Shown in pieces: positions 1-45,881 of a stretch of DNA of 64,000 nucleotides (within the stretch, counting starts at the first letter, position 1; each line of letters begins with the position of its first letter). The stretch comes from Gemmatimonadales bacterium (lineage in GTDB: Bacteria > Gemmatimonadota > Gemmatimonadetes > Gemmatimonadales > GWC2-71-9), in the NCBI GenBank assembly GCA_038205305.1, contig JBBRBZ010000001.1, positions 1,811 through 65,810 on the forward strand. Direction: 5' to 3'. Made by a program: the position numbers and the translations under genes. The notes under the pieces are model-generated. The model saw nothing but the letters and a program-made list of their open reading frames with translations. It was not told the origin of the DNA and searched no databases.

Positions 1-1578
1 TGTCAACGTGCGACGCTGGGCCAGTGCGAAGGATTCGATCCGCGCTGCCATGCCGGTCAGCGCGCGTCGCGTCTCCTCATCAATCGCATCGACAGCCGCT
101 CGAAGCGCTGCCGCGTCGACGATCAGGGGGCGTTGGCCGTCCCAACCGTCGAATTTTCTCGCGAAGCGTTCAAGCTCGCGATCGCCGCCCTTGCGTACCG
201 CGGCCACGATAGCCGATGCGCCTTCAAGAGTGGCCGCGTCAATCGCGCTCGGCGCCCGCGGTGGCAGCGCGTCCGACCGAACCCGACGCAGCGCGTCGAA
301 GGCAACCGGCGCGGGCGTTGCGGCGGGCTTGGCATCACCAGGGCGTCGGGTCACTCGCGTGGTGCGCGTATCGAGCTCGTGTTCCACATCGGCCAGTGTG
401 CAGCCGTGCGCCGCCAGCTTCACCATGGTGAAGTAGAGCACGTCGGCCGCTTCCGCGACCGCCGCTTCGGCAGTCGTCGTCGCCGCGAGTTCACCTGCTT
501 CCTCGACCAGCTTGCTGGCAAGGAGCGACGGAGTCTCCCACAGTCGCTGCGTGTAGGAGCCGGCGACCGCTTTCTGTCGGCGTGCGCGCAGGGTCGATTC
601 CAGGCCGGTCAAGCCTGGGGCGTCATTCCAGCAGGTGAGTGAGCCGGTGTGACAGAAGCCCGGATCGGCCTGACGCACCGTGAAGCGGATGGCATCGCGA
701 TCGCAGTCGAGGTCGACGCGCAGCAATTGTTGCGTGGCACCCGAGGTGGCGCCCTTCTCCCACACTCCCCTCCGACGCGAGTGGTAAATCCCGCGTCGCG
801 TTTCGATCGCCTGCGCCAGGCTCTCGCGGCTTGACCATGCCAGGCCCAGCGCGGTCCCCCGCTCATCGACCACCACCGTCGCGAAGAGTCCGTCGGCACG
901 ATCGGTGATCAGCGGGGCGGCCACCGCATCGGCCAGTGAAAGGTGACCGGTATAGAGTGCCATCCCCACTTGGGCATCGACGCCGAGGGCGTCGAGTGCC
1001 GCGATATCTTGGGCAGTGGTGACACCACCGGCGACGGTGATCCGCACGTTACCTGTTGCGGCTACCATCTGCTTTACCGCGGGCAGATCGATGCCAGCCA
1101 TCCGCCCTTCCCGCTCGACAAAGGTGAGCAGGAAGCCGCCCACCACGTCACGCAGTTCCACGATCCGGTCGAGCACACTACTCCCGGTCCGCGTGCGCCA
1201 ACCGTGCGTCACCACCTCGCCGTCGATCGCATCGAGCGCAGCGATCGTGCGCTCGCGGGGGAGGGCGCAAAGGAAGTCGGGCGTTGCGGCGGTCCCGATG
1301 ATGATCTTCGCGGCGCCCGCATCGAGCCAGAAGCGGGCACGGTCGAGATCGCGAATGCCGCCGCCGACGCGCACCGGAAACCGCCGGCAGAGCGGGGCGA
1401 GGAGCGCGCGTTGATCGCCCTCGCCCAGTGCAGCGTCGAGGTCGATCAGTGCCACTTCGCCGGCGATGGTGAATCGCTCGAGCCAATCCACCGGCGCGCC
1501 AGCCTCGAGCGCAAGATCGCGACCACCCACGAGTTGGACGGTCCGTCCCTTCGCAACATCGACTGATGGAATGATCAT
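1..1578 (-). CDS. Fused histidine-biosynthesis protein: HisA (ProFAR isomerase) + HisI (PR-AMP cyclohydrolase) + HisE (PR-ATP pyrophosphatase) + N-terminal part of HisD (histidinol dehydrogenase); 3' end runs off the window
   Basis: My own reverse-complement translation from ATG 1578..1576. The frame is absent from the ORF track because it never terminates inside the window. HisA: MIIPSVDVAKGRTVQLVGG...VRVGGGIRD. HisI: GLFATVVVDERGTALGLAWSSRESL...WEKGATSGATQQLLRVDLDCDRDAIRFTVRQADPGFCHTGSLTCW. HisE: SYTQRLWETPSLLASKLVEEAGELA...EAADVLYFTMVKLAAHG. HisD N-terminus: IVAAVRKGGDRELERFARKFDGW. ATGA overlap with the hisF stop. Confidence 0.85.
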   Translation of the reverse strand, partial: MIIPSVDVAKGRTVQLVGGRDLALEAGAPVDWLERFTIAGEVALIDLDAALGEGDQRALLAPLCRRFPVRVGGGIRDLDRARFWLDAGAAKIIIGTAATPDFLCALPRERTIAALDAIDGEVVTHGWRTRTGSSVLDRIVELRDVVGGFLLTFVEREGRMAGIDLPAVKQMVAATGNVRITVAGGVTTAQDIAALDALGVDAQVGMALYTGHLSLADAVAAPLITDRADGLFATVVVDERGTALGLAWSSRESLAQAIETRRGIYHSRRRGVWEKGATSGATQQLLRVDLDCDRDAIRFTVRQADPGFCHTGSLTCWNDAPGLTGLESTLRARRQKAVAGSYTQRLWETPSLLASKLVEEAGELAATTTAEAAVAEAADVLYFTMVKLAAHGCTLADVEHELDTRTTRVTRRPGDAKPAATPAPVAFDALRRVRSDALPPRAPSAIDAATLEGASAIVAAVRKGGDRELERFARKFDGWDGQRPLIVDAAALRAAVDAIDEETRRALTGMAARIESFALAQRRTLT

Positions 1579-2330
1579 GGCCGAATCTCCACTCCGCGTG
1601 AGGCCAGATACTGTTTGACTTCCGAAACCGTCGTGTCCCCGTCGTGAAACATCGAAGCGGCCAGCACCGCGTCCGCGCCGGCCGCGATGGCGTCAAAGAA
1701 ATCTTCCGCCGTGCGGGCCCCACCGGAGGCGATGACGGGCAGGCGGATGCGCTCGCTCACGGCAGCCACCAGTTCCAGATCGAAGCCACTCCGCGTGCCG
1801 TCGCGATCAATGCTGGTGAGCAGGATCTCTCCCGCCCCGCGCTGCTCCACTTCCATCGCCCACTCGACGGCGTCGCGAGCCGTGGCGTTCGCTCCGGAGT
1901 GGGAGAAGACCCGCCACGCCCTATCACCATCCCGAGCCGCGTCGATGGCGACGGTCACGCATTGCCGTCCGAACCGCGTGGCGAGTTCCGTGACCAGATC
2001 TGGACGCTCGATTGCGGCGGTGTTCACACCCACCTTGTCGGCGCCGGCATTCAGCAACGCCTCGGCGTCGGCGATGCTGCGCACGCCACCACCCACCGTG
2101 AGCGGAATGCGGAGCGTGGCGCGCACCTCGCGCACGGTGTCCAGCGCGTGGGCGCGCCCGTCCGGGGTGGCCGAGACATCGAGCAGCACGAGCTCATCGG
2201 CGCCCGAAAGGTCATAGGCGGCGGCGAGCCCACCCGGCGAGCCAGCATCGCGCAGGTCGCGGAACTGGCGACCCTTCACGACCCGACCATCGCGGGTGTC
2301 GAGGCAGGGAATGATGCGCCGAGTCAGCAT
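1575..2330 (-). CDS. hisF: Imidazole glycerol phosphate synthase, cyclase subunit HisF
   Basis: ORF 1575..2465 trimmed to Met46 ([20 protein letters not shown]...). HisF-typical RIIPCLD, GADKVGVNTAA and VIASGGA segments. Overlaps the hisH stop by 7 nt. Confidence 0.93.
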   Translation of the reverse strand: MLTRRIIPCLDTRDGRVVKGRQFRDLRDAGSPGGLAAAYDLSGADELVLLDVSATPDGRAHALDTVREVRATLRIPLTVGGGVRSIADAEALLNAGADKVGVNTAAIERPDLVTELATRFGRQCVTVAIDAARDGDRAWRVFSHSGANATARDAVEWAMEVEQRGAGEILLTSIDRDGTRSGFDLELVAAVSERIRLPVIASGGARTAEDFFDAIAAGADAVLAASMFHDGDTTVSEVKQYLASRGVEIRP

Positions 2331-2929
2331 GCCGCGCTCCATCGTGCCAGCAGACCCTCTCCCCACGCGCCGGAGAGCTCCGGGTGAAACTGGCAGGCCA
2401 GTTGTGTCCCACGTTCGAACGCCGCGATGAAGGGTCGACCATGCTCGCTTGAGGCCGCCAACCATGAAGCCGCCCCCTCGGTGAAGCAGTAGGAGTTGGC
2501 GAAGTAGGCGTAGCCGGGTTGCACGAACTGCATTCCCTCGGCGGGCTCCACGCGATTCCAGCCGATCTGGGGGAGCCGCACACCCGCCGGAAGTTTCCGA
2601 ACGACATTCGGGATCACGCCGAACCCCCCCACGAGACCGGATTCTTCGCTGGTGCGCGCCAGCAGCTGCATGCCGAGGCAGATCATCAACATCGGCTCCT
2701 TCGCCTGCAGCCGTTCCAGGAGCACGGTGTCCATGCCGGACTGCCGCAGCTGCTCGCGCGCAGCGCCAAAGGCACCGACACCCGGAAGCACCACCCGGCG
2801 GGCACGTCGGACATCGTCAGGCGTCCGCGCGATGACCGCGCGCAATCCGATCCGACCGAACGCCGCCACCACCGATGCAAGATTGGCGGTGCCGGTCGAG
2901 ACGATGCTCACGTCGGCGGCCGGCGTCAC
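2324..2929 (-). CDS. hisH: Imidazole glycerol phosphate synthase, glutamine amidotransferase subunit HisH
   Basis: ORF 2324..2929 with GTG start. VLPGVGAFG, catalytic-Cys context MICLGMQLL, and QFHPELS near the C-terminus. GTGA overlap with the hisB stop. Confidence 0.93.
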
Positions 2930-3513
2930 AGCGCCCCCTTGGTGCTGGGGATGTCGCCGCTCTCGGTGCGCCGCACGGCGACGCGGAGTGCGAGCGCCAC
3001 CGCCTTGAACGCCGCCTCTGCCCGGTGATGGTCGTTCTCCCCTGTGAGCACATCCACGTGAAGTGTCATCCGGGCCGCGGTCGCCAGCGAACGCAGCACA
3101 TGCGGGATGTTCTCACACGAGAGGGCACCGAGTCGTTCCCGTTCGAGACTGAGTTCGATCCGCGCGAAGGGACGCCCCGAGAAATCGACCACCGCACGGG
3201 CGAGCGCCTCATCGAGCGGCGCGTAGGCCGAGCCGAATCGGGTCAGGCTGCGACGATCACCCAGTGCCTCATCGAGCGCTGCACCGAGCACCAGGGCGCA
3301 GTCCTCTGCCGTGTGATGGTCGTCCACCTGGAGGTCGCCGGTGGCGCGCAGGGAGAGATCGAACCCGGCGTGCAGCGTGAGCGCCGTGAGCAGGTGGTCC
3401 AGGAAGCCGATGCCGGTGGTGATCTCGGCGGTGCCGGTGCCATCAAGCATGAGGGTCGCTTCGACGGTGGTCTCACGCGTGCGCCGCGTGATGGTGGCGG
3501 TACGCGGCATCAT
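2926..3513 (-). CDS. hisB: Imidazoleglycerol-phosphate dehydratase HisB (monofunctional, no HAD phosphatase domain)
   Basis: ORF 2926..3684 trimmed to Met58 ([21 protein letters not shown]...). IGPD motifs [17 protein letters not shown] and [13 protein letters not shown] overlap with the upstream stop. Confidence 0.92.
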
Positions 3514-5183
3514 GGCAGGACCTCTTCGAGAAGATTGGTGGATGGCAGAACCCACGCGGCGCCGGCGGCGCGCAACGTCGTGTCGAGCAGCTCTCCCGTG
3601 GACTGCGGTGGCAGTACGCCGACCGGGAGAGCTCCGGCCGCGCGCGCGGCCTGCACGTCGTCGGGCGTGTCGCCGATCATCCACGCGCGCGAGACGTCGA
3701 GGCGCCGCATCGCCTCCCCCACGGGGAATGGATCGGGTTTGAGCGGGCCATCATCGCGGGTGACACAGGTCGAGAAGCATTCCGTCAGGCCGAACCGCTC
3801 GAGGAATCGCTCGGCGTCGGCCCTGGGCCGGCCCGTCACGATGCCGAGCGGGAATCGCGACGCCAGATGCTCGAGCAGCTCTTGGCTCACCAGCAGCGTC
3901 TCGGACTCTCGAAGCCCCGGGCGGCCTGGTTCGCCCTGGTAGATCGATTCGAAGCGGCACTTCACCGTTGCGAGGGGAACCTCGGTGCCGCGGGCCTTCA
4001 GTAGATCGGTGGTGAGTTGCCAATCGTCGTTGGCGTGGCCGGCGGCTTTTGCTGCGGCGATGTCGGAGGGGAGGAGGGTCACGCCAAAGCTGGCGGCGGT
4101 CTCGATGATCGCCTGCCGGTATGAGGTGGTGACATCCGCCAGGACGCCGTCCATGTCGAACAGGAGCGTCTGGGGCGACAGGACCGTCCGAAGCGCCGCC
4201 TCAAGTTGGAACCATGTTTTATCGGTTACAGGACAGGTGATGCGTACCCAGTTGTCCTCCGCATCGGCGAGGAGGCGAACGGAGACCCCCATGCCGGCGA
4301 GGGCGTCGCGCAGCCACGCTGCGCGCGGTGGTCGGATACAGACAAAATTGGCCTCGCTGGGCAGGGGCTCGAGTGCCAGCTCTACAAGGAGCGCGGTGAG
4401 GCGAACGCGGTTTGCGATGATCGCCTCGCGAGTCGCCGCCCGCCCGGCGGGATCGTCTTTCACTGCCGCCAGGGCGCGGGCAAGCGACTCGGCCGCGATC
4501 GGGTAGGGATTACCCACGCGGCGCATCCATTCGATCACGTCGGGCGGCCCGGCAGCCCAGCCGACCCGGATGCCAGGAAGTCCCCACGCCTTGGAGAAGG
4601 TGCGGGTGACCACGATTCCCGGTTCGGCGAGCAGTGCGACGGTGGGGTCAGCCTCGGCGAATTCCACGTAGGCGAGATCCACCACGAGCAGCGCATCGGG
4701 AGCGGAGCGGGCGATCTCCCGCAACGCGTCGAGCGATGCGACGGCACCGGTGGGATTGTTGGGCGAAACGATGACGATCAACCGGGTGTTGTCGTTCACC
4801 TCTCGGAGCAGCTTCTCGACGGGCAGCGCACCTGTCGTCCACGCTACCTCCCGGATGGTGGCGCCCACGAGCCGAGCGTAGCGTGGCAGCATCTCGAAGG
4901 TGGGTGACGTGAGGATCACCTCGTCGCCGCGACTGAGCACGGCGCGGAACGCCCGCTCGAGCGCCTCGTCGGCGCCGGCGGTGACGAGGATCTGCGTGTC
5001 CGACACGCCAACCATCTGCGCCAAACGGGCGGCGAGGGCCCGGCTGTCGGGGTAGGGTGACATCGCCGTGTTGGCGAGATCGAGCGTGATCTGCCCTCCA
5101 GGCCGGGGAGCGCGGTACGCCGTGACGGCCGTGGCTGCGACGGATGGCCGTGGGCCCGAGGTGACCGTTGCGATACCAGTCAT
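3510..5183 (-). CDS. hisC: Histidinol-phosphate aminotransferase (HisC) fused to a C-terminal HAD-superfamily phosphatase domain
   Basis: ORF 3510..5183 (557 aa). N-terminal about 345 aa is a class-II aminotransferase: SPNNPTG, and [14 protein letters not shown] carrying the PLP lysine. C-terminal about 200 aa has HAD motifs I-IV: [34 protein letters not shown] overlap with the hisG stop. Confidence 0.9.
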
Positions 5184-6055
5184 GGCACGATCTGCGTCAA
5201 GGCGCTGACAATCAGGTCCGTGCCACCGCTTGCCTTCACCAGCGGGACAATGCGCGGCAGGTCGGCGCGCAACACCGCCGACTTGATCGCGAAGCCAGCA
5301 TCACCGTGGAGCATGGCGATGGTCGGTTCGCGCATGCAGGGCAGCACGGCACAGACCGCCTCAAGCCGGTCCGGCGTCACATTCACTTCCAGCATGACGC
5401 GCCGGCGGGCCTCGAGGACGGACCCGACCAGCATGGCCAGATCCTCGACCGCGGCGCGACGTGCGGGTTGGTCGAGAATCCGGCGATTGACAAAGAGCCG
5501 AGTGGAAGAGGTCATCAGGGTGTCGAAGATCGACAGCCCGTTGGCGGCGAGCGTCGCACCCGTGGCGGTATTGTCGACGATCAAGTCGGCGTCGTCGGGT
5601 GGAAAGACTTCGGTGGCACCGTAGGAGCGCACGAAAGTGGCGTCGAGTCCCAGCCGGGCGATCCATTGCCGGGTGAGGTTGGGATACTCCGAGGCGACAA
5701 CCAGGCCATCGCGCCGTCGCAGTTGGCCGCCGGTGAGCAGGGCGTCCGGAGCAGCGGCCACCAGCGAGACCGGGTCGAGTCCGGTGTCGAGGACCTCGAC
5801 GAGATCTGCCCCGAGCTCCGCGACCCAGTCGGCCCCGGCGAAGCCGGCATCGCGAGAACCCGCGGCGACCATCTCGATGATGTTCTGGGGCTTGAGGATC
5901 TTGACGTTGTAGCCACCGGCGATCGTCGGTCGGTATTCCCGACTGCCGGCGCGAACCTTCAATCCGGCCGCGTCGAGCAGCGTGAACAGTTCCGCCTGCA
6001 TGCGCCCCTTGGGCAGGGCAAGGCGAAGGGTGGTGGGCTCATCCTGTGGTGTCAT
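5180..6055 (-). CDS. hisG: ATP phosphoribosyltransferase HisG (long form with C-terminal regulatory domain)
   Basis: ORF 5180..6103 trimmed to Met17 (MTPQDEPTTLRLALPKGRM...), which has an AGAGGA Shine-Dalgarno 4 nt upstream. LALPKGR and DLIVDNTATGATL segments are typical of HisG. Confidence 0.9.
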   Translation of the reverse strand: MTPQDEPTTLRLALPKGRMQAELFTLLDAAGLKVRAGSREYRPTIAGGYNVKILKPQNIIEMVAAGSRDAGFAGADWVAELGADLVEVLDTGLDPVSLVAAAPDALLTGGQLRRRDGLVVASEYPNLTRQWIARLGLDATFVRSYGATEVFPPDDADLIVDNTATGATLAANGLSIFDTLMTSSTRLFVNRRILDQPARRAAVEDLAMLVGSVLEARRRVMLEVNVTPDRLEAVCAVLPCMREPTIAMLHGDAGFAIKSAVLRADLPRIVPLVKASGGTDLIVSALTQIVP

Positions 6056-6100
6056 GTCGTCCTCTGCGGCCCTGCCGGGCGGCGTCGGACTCCGGAAAGT

Positions 6101-6128
6101 CAAAACGCCGACCCAGAGGGGCCGGCGT
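6101..6128 (-). terminator. Candidate attenuator/intrinsic terminator between his leader peptide and hisG
   Basis: Minus-strand RNA ACGCCGGCCC-CUCU-GGGUCGGCGU: a 10-bp stem with one G-U pair and a 4-nt loop. It is followed by UUUG. It lies 37 nt after the leader stop and 46 nt before the hisG ATG. Confidence 0.6.
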
Positions 6129-6165
6129 TGTTGGTTTGGCGAACTGAACTACTCGCTCCGCAACA

Positions 6166-6225
6166 TCAGACCGCCCCGGGGACTCCGTGGTGATGGTGAT
6201 GATGGCGGTGTGAGGTGGTAAGCAT
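6166..6225 (-). CDS. Histidine-operon leader peptide (MLTTSHRHHHHHHGVPGAV*)
   Basis: Hand translation of the minus strand from ATG 6225..6223. There are 19 codons, and 7 of 8 consecutive codons (6210..6187) are His (CAC/CAT). Stop TGA at 6168..6166. Too short to appear in the ORF track. Confidence 0.7.
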   Translation of the reverse strand: MLTTSHRHHHHHHGVPGAV

Positions 6226-6231
6226 GGGCTC

Positions 6232-6260
6232 AATCTACACCACCCCCTGGGGTCTTGCAA
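6232..6260 (-). promoter_or_regulatory. Candidate sigma-70-type promoter of the his operon (-35 TTGCAA, 17-nt spacer, -10 TAGATT)
   Basis: On the minus strand, TTGCAA (6260..6255), a 17-nt spacer, then TAGATT (6237..6232). The -10 ends 6 nt before the leader-peptide ATG, implying a leaderless transcript. No SD is present. Confidence 0.45.
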
Positions 6261-6392
6261 GCCGACATGCTGGGCTGACCGGGGCCCAGGTGCGGGCATT
6301 CCGGGCCTCCACTGGCTAGATTGACCAGCTTGGACCAGTGGCGGTTGGGTGCCGCCACGCTTCACGCGAAATCCAATGGGAAGGACGGCTCG

Positions 6393-7835
6393 ATGACCGC
6401 GATGGCGCTGCCGGGGTGGGAACTCCCCCTGATCATTCAGGGGGGCATGGGTATCGCCGTCTCGGATTGGCGGTTGGCCCGGGCTGTGTCCACCCGGGGC
6501 CAGCTTGGCGTGGTGTCCGGCACCTGCATCGATTCCGTTCTGGTGCGTCGGCTTCAGGACGGCGATCTGGGCGGGCATATCCGGCGGGCGATGGCGGCGT
6601 TCCCCATTCCCGGGATTGCCGAGGATGCCCTGAAGCGGTTCTTCCGCCCAGAAGGGCGCGAACCGGGGACGCCCTACGCGCTGCTGCCGATGTATCGGCA
6701 GGTGGTCAGCCGGGCCCGCGAGGCGATCACCATGATGGCCTCGTTCGTGGAAGTCTATCTCGCGAAGGAAGGCCACCAGGGTCAGGTCGGTATCAACCTG
6801 CTGACCAAGATCCAGCGACCCAACATGGCCGCACTCTACGGCGCGCTGCTCGCCGGTGTCGATGTCGTCCTCATGGGCGCCGGTATTCCGCGCGAGATCC
6901 CCACCGTGCTTCGCAACTTGGCCGATCACCAGCCTGCCTCGCTGCGCTTCGATGTGGAGGAGACTGCGCGGGATGTGGTGGAGCACATCACCTTCGATCC
7001 GTCGCAGTACTACATCACCATGCCCGAGCCGGTGCGGGTGCCGAAGTTCCTGCCGATCGTCGCCAGCAACTCACTCGCCACCATGCTCGCCCGCAAGACC
7101 GTCGGCATCGATGGCTTCGTGGTCGAGGGGTGGACGGCGGGTGGGCACAATGCACCGCCGCGTGGTCCGGCGACCTTCAACGCGCGCGGAGAGCCGGTCT
7201 ACGGCGAGCGCGACATCGTCGACCTCCACCAGCTCGCCGAACTTGGTCTCCCGTTCTGGCTTGCCGGTGGACTCGGCTCACCGGAGCGACTGAAGGAGGC
7301 GCGCCGTGATGGTGCGGCCGGCATCCAGGTTGGCACCCTCTTCGCCTACAGCAACGAGTCGGGCTTCACCGCCGCGCTCAAGCGCGAGGTGCTTGAGAGC
7401 GCCAATCAGGGCAACGTCGATGTCACCACCGATCCGCGCGCCTCGCCGACCGGCTACCCCTTCAAGGTGGTGACGTGGAAGGGTCCCAATGGCGGCATGC
7501 CCAAGCGCGAACGGCTCTGCGACTTGGGCTACCTGCGCACCGCCTTCCGCGATCCGGAAAGCGGTCGGATCAACTATCGCTGCCCGAGCGAGCCGATCGA
7601 TGCCTTCCTCAAAAAGGGCGGCACCATCGAGGAGACGGTTGGCCGTCAGTGTCTCTGCAACGCGCTGATGTCCAACATCGGCTTGGCACAGGAACACGAC
7701 GACGGCACCGTCGAGCCACCGCTGCTCACCAGTGGCGATGACCTGATGCAGATCGGCCGCTTCCTGCAGGGACGGACGTCCTATGCTGCCGGTGACGTCA
7801 TCGACTACCTCCTCGGCGAGACCGCCAGCGCCTGA
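6393..7835 (+). CDS. Nitronate monooxygenase / 2-nitropropane dioxygenase-like FMN oxidoreductase (NMO/FabK-like family)
   Basis: ORF 6321..7835. I prefer ATG 6393 because GGAAGGA sits 7 nt upstream. IIQGGMGIAVS, VVLMGAGIPREIP and GFVVEGWTAGGHN are typical of the NMO TIM-barrel family. Confidence 0.8.
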   Translation: MTAMALPGWELPLIIQGGMGIAVSDWRLARAVSTRGQLGVVSGTCIDSVLVRRLQDGDLGGHIRRAMAAFPIPGIAEDALKRFFRPEGREPGTPYALLPMYRQVVSRAREAITMMASFVEVYLAKEGHQGQVGINLLTKIQRPNMAALYGALLAGVDVVLMGAGIPREIPTVLRNLADHQPASLRFDVEETARDVVEHITFDPSQYYITMPEPVRVPKFLPIVASNSLATMLARKTVGIDGFVVEGWTAGGHNAPPRGPATFNARGEPVYGERDIVDLHQLAELGLPFWLAGGLGSPERLKEARRDGAAGIQVGTLFAYSNESGFTAALKREVLESANQGNVDVTTDPRASPTGYPFKVVTWKGPNGGMPKRERLCDLGYLRTAFRDPESGRINYRCPSEPIDAFLKKGGTIEETVGRQCLCNALMSNIGLAQEHDDGTVEPPLLTSGDDLMQIGRFLQGRTSYAAGDVIDYLLGETASA

Positions 7836-38275: not shown

Positions 38276-39031
38276 TCAGTGGCTGATGGCGGGCTGCCAC
38301 GGCAGGCCGTCCCATGAGACCGTGAGCCGGTGACTGCTGATTCCGAGACGAGGGGCGCGAAGGCCGAAGATGGTGCGCCGGCCGGTCGCGAATTTGGCCG
38401 ACGCCACCCCGAGCGCCGCGCCAGCCACGACGTCGCTGGTCCAGTGGGCATCCTGCGCCACCCGGGCCCACGCCGTGCCGGTGGCCAGGGCGTAAAGGCC
38501 GACGCGCGCCCAGGGGCGGTGGATCGCATCGCCGAGCGCGGTGGCAAACGCGAACGCCACGGTGGTGTGCCCCGACGGGAAGGACGCCTTCCCGGAGAAC
38601 GGCGCAAAGTCGTCTCCGGCACGATCGGGATCGTTGTACGGTCGTTCCCGACCCACGATGAGCTTCAGCCCCTGCACCGCGATTGTCGCGGCAGCCACCG
38701 ACGCCGTGGTCTCGAGGGCGGCGTGTGTGAGGGCGCGTTGATGCGCCACCAGCCCGACGATCGCCAGCACGCCCACAGTGGGTCCGATGATGGTGACGGT
38801 GCCGAAGCGTGCCAGGTCGTTGGCGGTGCTGAGTCGATCGGCGGAGGGATGTTCCTGTAGGTCATGCGCGATGGCCGCATCGAGCAGTGAGGCTGCGGCG
38901 ACGAGCCCGGTCGCTGCGGCGACGACTGGCCAGCGAATGGGAGGTGGGGAGGACGCCCTGGTCGATTGGGACGTTGCCGAGCGTGCCGCGAGCAGAAGGA
39001 GGAGGCTCACGGCACGCCACCGGCCAGACAT
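38276..39031 (-). CDS. PAP2-family (phosphatidic acid / undecaprenyl-PP-type) membrane phosphatase
   Basis: ORF 38276..39070 trimmed to Met14 (39031), which overlaps the upstream stop by 1 nt. PAP2 motifs KLIVGRERP, FPSGHT and AQDAHWTSDV. Confidence 0.85.
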   Translation of the reverse strand: MSGRWRAVSLLLLLAARSATSQSTRASSPPPIRWPVVAAATGLVAAASLLDAAIAHDLQEHPSADRLSTANDLARFGTVTIIGPTVGVLAIVGLVAHQRALTHAALETTASVAAATIAVQGLKLIVGRERPYNDPDRAGDDFAPFSGKASFPSGHTTVAFAFATALGDAIHRPWARVGLYALATGTAWARVAQDAHWTSDVVAGAALGVASAKFATGRRTIFGLRAPRLGISSHRLTVSWDGLPWQPAISH

Positions 39032-45810: not shown

Positions 45811-45881
45811 TTCCCCCTCGTGGATTCGAACCACGATTCGCAGCTCCAAAGGCTGCTGTCCTGCCATTGGACGAAGGGGGA
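45811..45881 (-). tRNA. tRNA-Gln (anticodon UUG), 71 nt, CCA not encoded
   Basis: Hand-folded cloverleaf on the minus strand: TCCCCCT TC GTCC AATGGCA GGAC A GCAGC CTTTGGA GCTGC GAAT CGTGG TTCGAAT CCACG AGGGGGA A. It has a 7-bp acceptor stem, 4-bp D stem, 5-bp anticodon stem with loop CU-UUG-GA, and a 5-bp T stem with a TTCGAAT loop. Confidence 0.9.

Follow-up and report, generated by a model that had tools for sequence, protein, structure and literature searches.

A candidate histidine attenuator on a predicted leaderless transcript upstream of hisG in a Gemmatimonadales bacterium

Directly upstream of hisG in a Gemmatimonadales genome (GenBank assembly GCA_038205305.1) lie a very short open reading frame (ORF) rich in histidine codons and a G+C-rich hairpin, both read from the minus strand of the 64,000-nucleotide (nt) stretch analysed here (contig JBBRBZ010000001.1, positions 1,811 to 65,810), which we call the window. 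We conclude that this leader is very probably a histidine-sensing, ribosome-mediated transcription attenuator of the operon hisG-hisC/HAD-hisB-hisH-hisF, carried on a leaderless or near-leaderless transcript. The attenuator is well supported by its sequence elements, by their conservation and covariation and by predicted energetics, and it is from these that we infer the transcription start, termination, ribosome stalling and the response to histidine. Coordinates are those of the window, and loci in other genomes and metagenomes are cited by L numbers.

The leader ORF, its hairpin and their conservation before hisG

An earlier note on this DNA had described a 19-codon ORF with seven His codons among eight, followed at 37 nt from its stop by a G+C-rich hairpin, a tail containing U residues and then the hisG ATG, and in our reading of the minus strand each of these is found where the note had placed it (Table 1). 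The core of the hairpin (ACGCCGGCCC / CTCT / GGGTCGGCGT, 6128..6105) lies 36-37 nt past the leader stop. It can be extended to 11 base pairs (bp) as AACGCCGGCCC / GGGTCGGCGTT (6129..6104), the 3' arm reading GGGUCGGCGUU in RNA, and the sequence that follows it is TTTTGACTTT, or UUGACUUU in its RNA form.

When both strands of the window are considered, the ORF at 6225 is the only short ORF in which an amino-acid run, a -10 element 6 nt before the start and a terminator beyond the stop occur together. A simple scan of 2.5 kb found one terminator-like hairpin against 0.9 expected from shuffled sequence, and the fold z-score is -2.1. Taken singly the leader elements are weak; their combination exceeds chance. 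We also built a covariance model of the whole leader, R1, from 44 leaders, the window's own included. R1 finds one strong match in the window (97.4 bits, 6086..6225, minus strand) and its runner-up, at 21.9 bits, is the reverse complement of the hairpin; since the training alignment includes the window leader, it is the lack of a second match that is informative here. A further match of 19.6 bits at 38741..38848 falls inside a coding region without a His run and was rejected as chance.

HisG homologues were aligned and the DNA of the 80 genomes with the closest HisG was examined, which is also the comparison that the earlier note had proposed as a check. A His micro-ORF whose end lies about 75-145 nt ahead of hisG was found at 37 loci with a strict pattern and at 45 with a looser one, and R1 adds five carriers (L016, L060, L023, L077 and L046), which brings the total to about 50 of the 80 genomes. 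Judged by the labels of their bins, the carriers comprise all ten Gemmatimonadota/Gemmatimonadales, all nine Acidobacteriota and 12 of the 14 Planctomycetota/Phycisphaerae, a minority of the bins labelled Myxococcota, 'Deltaproteobacteria' or Bradymonadia, and single bins labelled Eisenbacteria, Krumholzibacteriia, Fimbriimonadia and Thermodesulfobacteriota. Carrier bins thus span at least five named phyla; the Sumerlaeota- and Alphaproteobacteria-labelled bins among the 80 genomes lack the leader element. Among the carriers is L066 (Acidobacteria bacterium Mor1, CP011806).

In the 44 aligned leaders the ORF is 15-24 codons long (median 19) and holds 3-9 His codons (median 6), and the start codon is ATG in 44 of 45 leaders and GTG in the remaining one. 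The family RNA consensus can be written ATG..(CAY)n..CGGGGCnGGnTGATGGTG....CCAnCAACGCCGGCCCC-loop-GGCCGGCGTTnTTGnTTT, in which CGGGGCnGGnTGATGGTG belongs to region 2, the predicted 5' strand of an antiterminator. What is conserved is the His run and the RNA block GG.UGAUGG, and not the peptide outside the His run. Because the GGnUGAUGG block is kept even when read in another frame with the stop further on, as in L011, L021, L026 and L028, the apparent '...GAG*' conservation of the peptide reflects a constraint on the RNA. In 41 of the 44 leaders the stop codon falls within the region 2 block, and 28 leaders stop at the UGA of UGAUGG.

The hairpin itself is conserved as a structure. Across the 44 sequences 90.9% of the cells of the terminator stem are paired, with compensatory changes in nine of 11 pairs, values that none of 500 shuffles reached; shifted controls were 20-55% paired. 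One inner pair runs through G-C, G-U and A-U among the relatives. RNAalifold applied to the raw MAFFT alignment recovered a consensus terminator stem and nothing else, and the helices beyond the terminator were scored with explicit structures. In the 10 nt after the last G or C of the stem the T fraction is 0.61 (39 leaders) versus 0.17 across whole loci, and a conserved stem followed by a T-rich tail is the sequence signature of an intrinsic terminator.

A hairpin of this sequence is by no means confined to his leaders. We scanned metagenomes with the pattern ACGCCGRCC..GGYCGGCGT and analysed 80 loci among the matches listed (L085 to L164). At 76 of these loci an upstream His ORF and a downstream hisG are both lacking; L098 alone has the two together, and L113 has hisG with no detected His ORF. 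Since the hairpin is common at metagenome loci unlinked to hisG, its conservation across phyla in his leaders is not diagnostic alone, and ACGCCGRCC-loop-GGYCGGCGT looks like a generic, possibly bidirectional, G+C-rich terminator. This wide distribution, together with the one terminator-like hairpin per 2.5 kb expected by chance, is what could be said for a reading in which the micro-ORF makes a small peptide with a function of its own, such as metal binding, or is a chance ORF, and the hairpin has nothing to do with histidine sensing. We regard that reading as very improbable, because ORF, His run and hairpin co-occur specifically before hisG in about 50 genomes and because the peptide is unconserved outside the His run, its C-terminal conservation being that of an RNA block read in differing frames. 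The whole leader is also separable from the hairpin: at the 80 metagenome loci R1 gave full-length matches only at L098 (73 bits) and L113 (41 bits), and overall it separates his-linked loci (41-97 bits) from hairpin-only loci (at most 34 bits, mostly over the hairpin portion alone).

The weaker full-length R1 matches are those in L046 (3363..3503, 37 bits), L140 (274..409, 34 bits) and L132 (225..334, 31 bits). The L046 match lies about 500 nt upstream of hisG, more distant than usual. As to the bin labels, L001 (JANYLP010000095.1) is a 4.3-kb contig binned as 'Coriobacteriia bacterium' whose HisG is 81% identical to that of the window and whose leader is near-identical (MLIHAHRHHAHHHGVSGAV); we take it for a Gemmatimonadales-like contig that was probably mis-binned. 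The label of L015 ('uncultured Enterobacteriaceae') also looks wrong.

Alternative pairings and the proposed switch

Region 2 (GGGGCGG..UGAUGUUG) runs across the leader stop codon and is complementary to a segment made up of CAACA and the terminator 5' arm (region 3), so that one strand is shared between an antiterminator and the terminator. Folds of the nascent transcript, ending at the loop, were computed with the ribosome-covered bases masked either around a middle His codon or around the stop codon. A ribosome at a middle His codon leaves nine of the 11 nt of the window's terminator 5' arm paired with upstream sequence (-22.6 kcal/mol), and one at the stop codon leaves the nascent RNA almost unstructured (-2.4 kcal/mol). 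The family behaves in the same way: in the former state 6-11 nt of the 5' arm are taken up by region 2, at energies of -20 to -43 kcal/mol, L077 being an outlier at -62.7 kcal/mol, and in the latter the values are 0 to -10 kcal/mol at all loci except L009 (-15.4 kcal/mol). The position of the ribosome therefore decides the upstream pairing of the terminator 5' arm in these constrained folds, which the earlier note had called for. The stop codon lies inside region 2, so a terminating ribosome would sit directly on the antiterminator strand. In the minimum-free-energy structure of the unmasked RNA, region 1 (the His run) is paired with region 2 and the terminator hairpin is present as well.

The specificity of these pairings was examined in a partner-swap test among 40 non-redundant sequences, the statistics of which, like those of the shuffles, ignore shared ancestry. 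Native partners pair better than swapped ones both for 2:3 (-25.1 vs -22.5 kcal/mol, permutation p < 1e-4) and for 1:2 (-23.2 vs -20.1 kcal/mol, permutation p < 1e-4). When the test is confined to the variable antiterminator segment (2b:3a), it is borderline (p = 0.059), because fixed-length slices miss the register shifts between clades. The 2:3 pairs can be seen to covary: UGUUG pairs with CAACA in the window and L081, UGAUGG with CCAUCA at most loci, CCGUGU with ACACGG in L019 and L022, GUGGUG with CGCCAC in L018 and L027, and GGCGUC with GACGCC in L055. The 1:2, 2:3 and 3:4 pairings that the earlier note had thought conceivable are thus supported by the constrained folds, the swap test and the pair counts, although the 2:3 pairing in the form given there was incomplete.

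From these pairings we propose the following switch. The predicted transcription start is the A of the leader AUG, give or take about 3 nt, and ribosomes would initiate at this 5'-terminal AUG with no Shine-Dalgarno (SD) sequence to guide them. When His-tRNA is plentiful, the ribosome would reach the UGA and cover region 2, leaving region 3 free to pair with region 4, and the resulting 11-bp hairpin with its U-rich tail would end transcription about 45-50 nt before hisG. When His-tRNA is scarce, the ribosome would stall in the run of seven His codons and leave region 2 exposed; region 2 would capture CAACA and the terminator 5' arm once they are transcribed, no terminator would form and polymerase would enter hisG. 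If the leader is left untranslated, region 1 would pair with region 2 and the terminator would form by default.

The full-length minimum-free-energy folds contain one pairing that has no place in this scheme. In the window, L081, L082, L018, L019 and L033 the terminator 3' arm pairs with the downstream near copy of region 3 (region 5, 6085..6075) to give a long alternative hairpin, and when the terminator is forced, the upstream GUCC pairs with GGAC of the hisG SD. In the window clade the SD is predicted to gain accessibility when the antiterminator replaces the terminator (0.42 to 0.64, 0.43 to 0.83 and 0.28 to 0.72). These folds would suit a reading in which the His-codon leader is real and acts, in whole or in part, on the translation of hisG, hairpin and region 5 refolding to mask or unmask the SD with little or no termination; translational attenuation is documented for mycobacterial leaderless micro-ORFs (bioRxiv 10.1101/834739), and many members of the family have imperfect U tracts. 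We consider such a reading unlikely. Over 29 loci SD accessibility shows no significant difference between the two states (0.52 vs 0.57, Wilcoxon p = 0.20), the partner of the His run is region 2 and not the hisG SD, and the T-rich tail that the family conserves is needed by an intrinsic terminator but not by an SD sequestrator. Translational coupling through a 4:5 pairing that unmasks the hisG SD was accordingly rejected as a family-wide feature and is suggestive in the window clade only. We record the 4:5 re-pairing as unexplained; its standing is uncertain, and it lies outside the attenuation mechanism proposed here.

Promoter geometry and the start of the leader transcript

At sigma-70 promoters transcription usually starts 7 nt past the -10 element. 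In the window 6 nt (gagccc) separate the putative -10 hexamer TAGATT from the leader ATG, so that the predicted start is the A of the AUG itself. An in-frame TAG, within the -10 hexamer, stands four codons ahead of this ATG, and no longer leader ORF is therefore possible. AUG is strongly preferred for leaderless initiation, and, as described above, all but one of the 45 leaders start with it.

The same geometry recurs in the relatives. At 24 of the 45 leaders a TANNNT hexamer has its end 6-10 nt ahead of the ATG and is accompanied by a -35 element (at least four of six matches) at a spacing of 16-19 nt, compared with 0.2% of random positions and 0.8% of all ATGs. A TTGACA-like hexamer (at least five of six matches) starts 35-39 nt before the ATG of 33 of 44 leaders versus 2.5% of random positions. 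Most of the other leaders have TTGAC at the equivalent position and CANNNT as the -10 element, and in L017 and L070 the promoter fits when the first of two in-frame ATGs serves as the start. An SD-like core (GGAG, GAGG or AGGA) precedes only three of 45 leader ATGs but 35 of 45 hisG starts at the same loci. This geometry suggests that the leader transcript probably has a 5' untranslated region (UTR) of 0-3 nt, and the conserved distance from the -35 and -10 elements to the ATG, together with the contrast in SD use, lends in silico support to the leaderless, SD-free reading of the earlier note.

An attenuator that is real but not leaderless would have its transcription start farther upstream in 6226..6390, with SD-independent initiation on a short 5' UTR. 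Such an arrangement could draw on the weakness of the window's -35 and -10 elements (8 of 12 consensus positions, unflagged by a sigma-70 scan), on the approximately 165 nt of intergenic DNA before the divergent NMO-family gene, and on the gap of 6-10 nt between -10 and ATG in the family, which implies that some members would have a 5' UTR of 1-3 nt. We think it improbable. Across phyla the -35 and -10 elements keep their placement relative to the ATG 10 to 100 times more often than the background would give, and L081 retains cTTGCcA and TAGAcT although the bases from the -10 element to the ATG differ. Moreover, 42 of the 45 leaders lack the SD-like core that these organisms use for hisG, and the near-universal leader ATG is the codon favoured by leaderless initiation. 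The 3' half of the promoter spacer (AGGGGGTGGTG, 6238..6250, minus strand) is identical in the window and L081 (94% HisG identity); it could be a protein-binding site overlapping the promoter or could simply reflect recent common ancestry.

Besides the neglect of shared ancestry in the swap and shuffle statistics, several observations weigh against a leaderless transcription attenuator in the window. The U tract that follows the hairpin is interrupted (UUUUGACUUU). Within the family's range of 2:3 pairings that of the window, at about -19 to -23 kcal/mol, lies towards the weak end, and with the His codons masked by a ribosome the terminator still forms at equilibrium (11 of 11 pairs), so that switching would have to rely on kinetics, as it does in the classical trp and his systems. 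In the columns of the raw MAFFT alignment the antiterminator is 73% paired versus 34-56% in shifted positions, with double changes in ten of 11 pairs, but the observed 2:3 covariation is attained by four of 500 shuffles; this column-based signal is only moderate because the antiterminator register differs between clades. The promoter, which the earlier note had called good, does have the elements and the spacing, but it is a weak match to consensus, and its -35 element fails the five-of-six test passed by 33 relatives, so that its credibility derives from the conservation of its position in relatives. Finally, a literature search on leaderless mRNAs in Gemmatimonas found nothing relevant.

Table 1. 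Features of the leader region and the his operon in the window
Feature	Position	Strand	Basis or remark
Putative -35 hexamer TTGCAA	6255..6260	-	Sequence reading; 4/6 match to TTGACA
Putative -10 hexamer TAGATT (TANNNT)	6232..6237	-	Sequence reading; 17-nt spacer from -35
Leader peptide ORF MLTTSHRHHHHHHGVPGAV*, 19 codons + TGA	6166..6225	-	ATG at 6225, TGA 6168..6166
Putative regulatory His codon run (region 1), 7 His in 8 codons	6187..6210	-	Sequence reading
Region 2 GGGGCGGUCUGAUGUUGCGG, predicted antiterminator 5' strand; leader stop codon inside	6158..6177	-	Folding, family consensus
Region 3, CAACA + ACGCCGGCCCC, predicted antiterminator 3' strand; overlaps terminator 5' arm	6118..6133	-	Folding
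Predicted terminator hairpin (3:4), 11 bp, loop CUCU	6104..6129	-	Terminator scan, RNAalifold
U-rich tail UUUUGACUUU	6096..6105	-	First two U coincide with last two stem pairs
Region 5 ACGCCGCCCGG, near copy of region 3; role uncertain	6075..6085	-	Full-length minimum-free-energy folds
hisG Shine-Dalgarno GAGGA	6060..6064	-	Sequence reading
hisG, ATP phosphoribosyltransferase, long form, 291 aa	5180..6055	-	TIGR00070, TIGR03455; ATG at 6055
Remaining operon genes	1575..5183	-	NCBIfam and Pfam matches
hisC::HAD fusion	5183..3510	-	NCBIfam/Pfam
hisB	about 3528..2926	-	NCBIfam/Pfam
hisH	2929..2324	-	NCBIfam/Pfam
hisF	about 2333..1575	-	NCBIfam/Pfam

The his operon, known leaders and the meaning of the family

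The hisG product scores 138.5 bits against TIGR00070 and 67.7 bits against TIGR03455, the model of the HisG C-terminal domain, and the closest named relatives of the window HisG are Gemmatimonadales bins. The gene order of the window's operon is repeated in L082 to L084; no hisD lies between hisG and hisB in the window. The second gene encodes a 557-aa product in which a HisC-like aminotransferase (Aminotran_1_2, residues 44-322) is joined to a HAD-family hydrolase (residues 339-518, TIGR01548-like), and a 555-aa version of this fusion also stands next after hisG in L082 to L084. It may combine histidinol-phosphate aminotransferase and the histidinol-phosphate phosphatase step in one protein. 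The NMO-family gene on the other side of the leader is divergent, and the hairpin therefore cannot be that gene's terminator.

The element is outside all existing Rfam families. The only Rfam match in the window at gathering threshold is a tRNA gene (45811..45881, minus strand), and a search of the leader region at E up to 10 gave only sub-threshold matches, Thr_leader at 17 bits and His_leader at 16 bits. The latter (RF00514, 6103..6205, minus strand) scores 16.1 bits against a gathering threshold of 49, with E = 6. In its logic the leader nevertheless resembles the hisL/His_leader element of E. coli, Salmonella and other Gammaproteobacteria: a leader ORF with seven His codons stands directly before hisG and is followed by a predicted intrinsic terminator, three mutually exclusive pairings (1:2, 2:3 and 3:4) place the His codons in region 1, and a stalled ribosome would expose the antiterminator strand. 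It has the end-product codons, the predicted intrinsic terminator and the excluding antiterminator (the last in silico) of ribosome-mediated transcription attenuators, along with the AUG start and the rarity of SD-like cores that mark leaderless mRNAs. Unlike hisL, the window leader has no SD and, as predicted, essentially no 5' UTR; its stop codon is embedded in region 2, and the blocks GG.UGAUGG and CCAUCA-ACGCCGGCC are conserved. The hosts differ as well, being Gemmatimonadota, Acidobacteriota, Planctomycetota and Myxococcota, and so does the operon, which runs hisG, hisC::HAD, hisB, hisH, hisF.

Three other kinds of regulatory leader bear comparison. The mycobacterial polycysteine leaderless short ORF (LL-sORF) Ms5788A (bioRxiv 10.1101/834739; Mol Microbiol 2020) likewise senses tRNA charging by ribosome stalling, but such mycobacterial leaderless micro-ORFs act on translation (bioRxiv 10.1101/834739). 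In the leader described here the His run pairs with 6177..6158 and not with the GAGGA at 6064..6060, there is no family-wide effect on the SD, and a canonical terminator with a U-rich tail is conserved; the amino acid and the phyla are different too. His leaders of Firmicutes, before hisZ or hisS in the Bacillus cereus group, Peptostreptococcaceae and Erysipelotrichales, are attenuators outside Proteobacteria that were likewise recognised through genome comparison, from a short ORF with His codons accompanied by terminator and antiterminator hairpins (PMC2965389, PMC9413887). In the parts of those two articles available to us they are described lineage by lineage, have 3-5 His codons and are reported with no leaderless arrangement, and it is by this description that we set them apart. 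For His leader peptides of Actinobacteria, PMC4833913 cites a conference paper. The His T-box of Firmicutes and of Corynebacterium glutamicum hisDCB is also a cis-acting RNA switch that reads His-tRNA charging and controls termination before his genes, but its ligand is the uncharged tRNA itself and there is no leader peptide; the T-box model gave no match in 5800..6600 at E up to 10, nor in the whole window at gathering thresholds.

A literature search of incomplete coverage found no description of such a leader in Gemmatimonadota, Acidobacteriota, Planctomycetota or Myxococcota. A 2004 study by Vitreschak et al. is said to report attenuators outside Proteobacteria and may contain an earlier mention. 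The earlier note had thought the leader noteworthy for its setting and its leaderless form. Neither leaderless micro-ORFs, known from mycobacteria, nor His leaders beyond enterobacteria, known from Firmicutes, are new as such, but a leaderless and uncatalogued family spread over several phyla appears to be. The sequence comparisons thus support a mechanism of a known kind, with novelty in the leaderless architecture and in a conserved, apparently uncatalogued multi-phylum family, and our understanding of the attenuation mechanism itself is unchanged.

What the family may mean lies instead in where it occurs. Documented ribosome-mediated attenuation is concentrated in Proteobacteria, Firmicutes and Actinobacteria (PMC2965389, PMC9413887), and the present leaders would extend it to Gemmatimonadota, Acidobacteriota, Planctomycetota and Myxococcota, abundant phyla of soil and water with hardly any characterised gene regulation. 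More speculatively, and as a possibility about which we remain doubtful, a single widespread family of leaderless His attenuators may accompany a particular long-form hisG in at least five phyla, whether inherited from a distant ancestor or passed on horizontally, with a possible second layer of control in some clades. In that second layer, if it is real, the terminator 3' arm would re-pair with the copy of region 3 and open the hisG ribosome-binding site, adding translational to transcriptional control.

For practical purposes the leader would justify a new RNA family entry, and a His micro-ORF, a GG.UGAUGG block and a ACGCCGGCC hairpin, all before hisG, would serve as an annotation rule in these phyla. 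To our knowledge leaderless mRNAs are essentially uncharacterised in the four phyla named above. The conserved geometry from promoter to AUG predicts leaderless translation in all four of them, and since the switch requires a ribosome to load on a 5'-terminal AUG, the leader would be a compact natural reporter of leaderless translation. If the single leaderless family envisaged above is real, translation from a 5'-terminal AUG would be both functional and regulatory in Gemmatimonadota, Acidobacteriota, Planctomycetota and Myxococcota.

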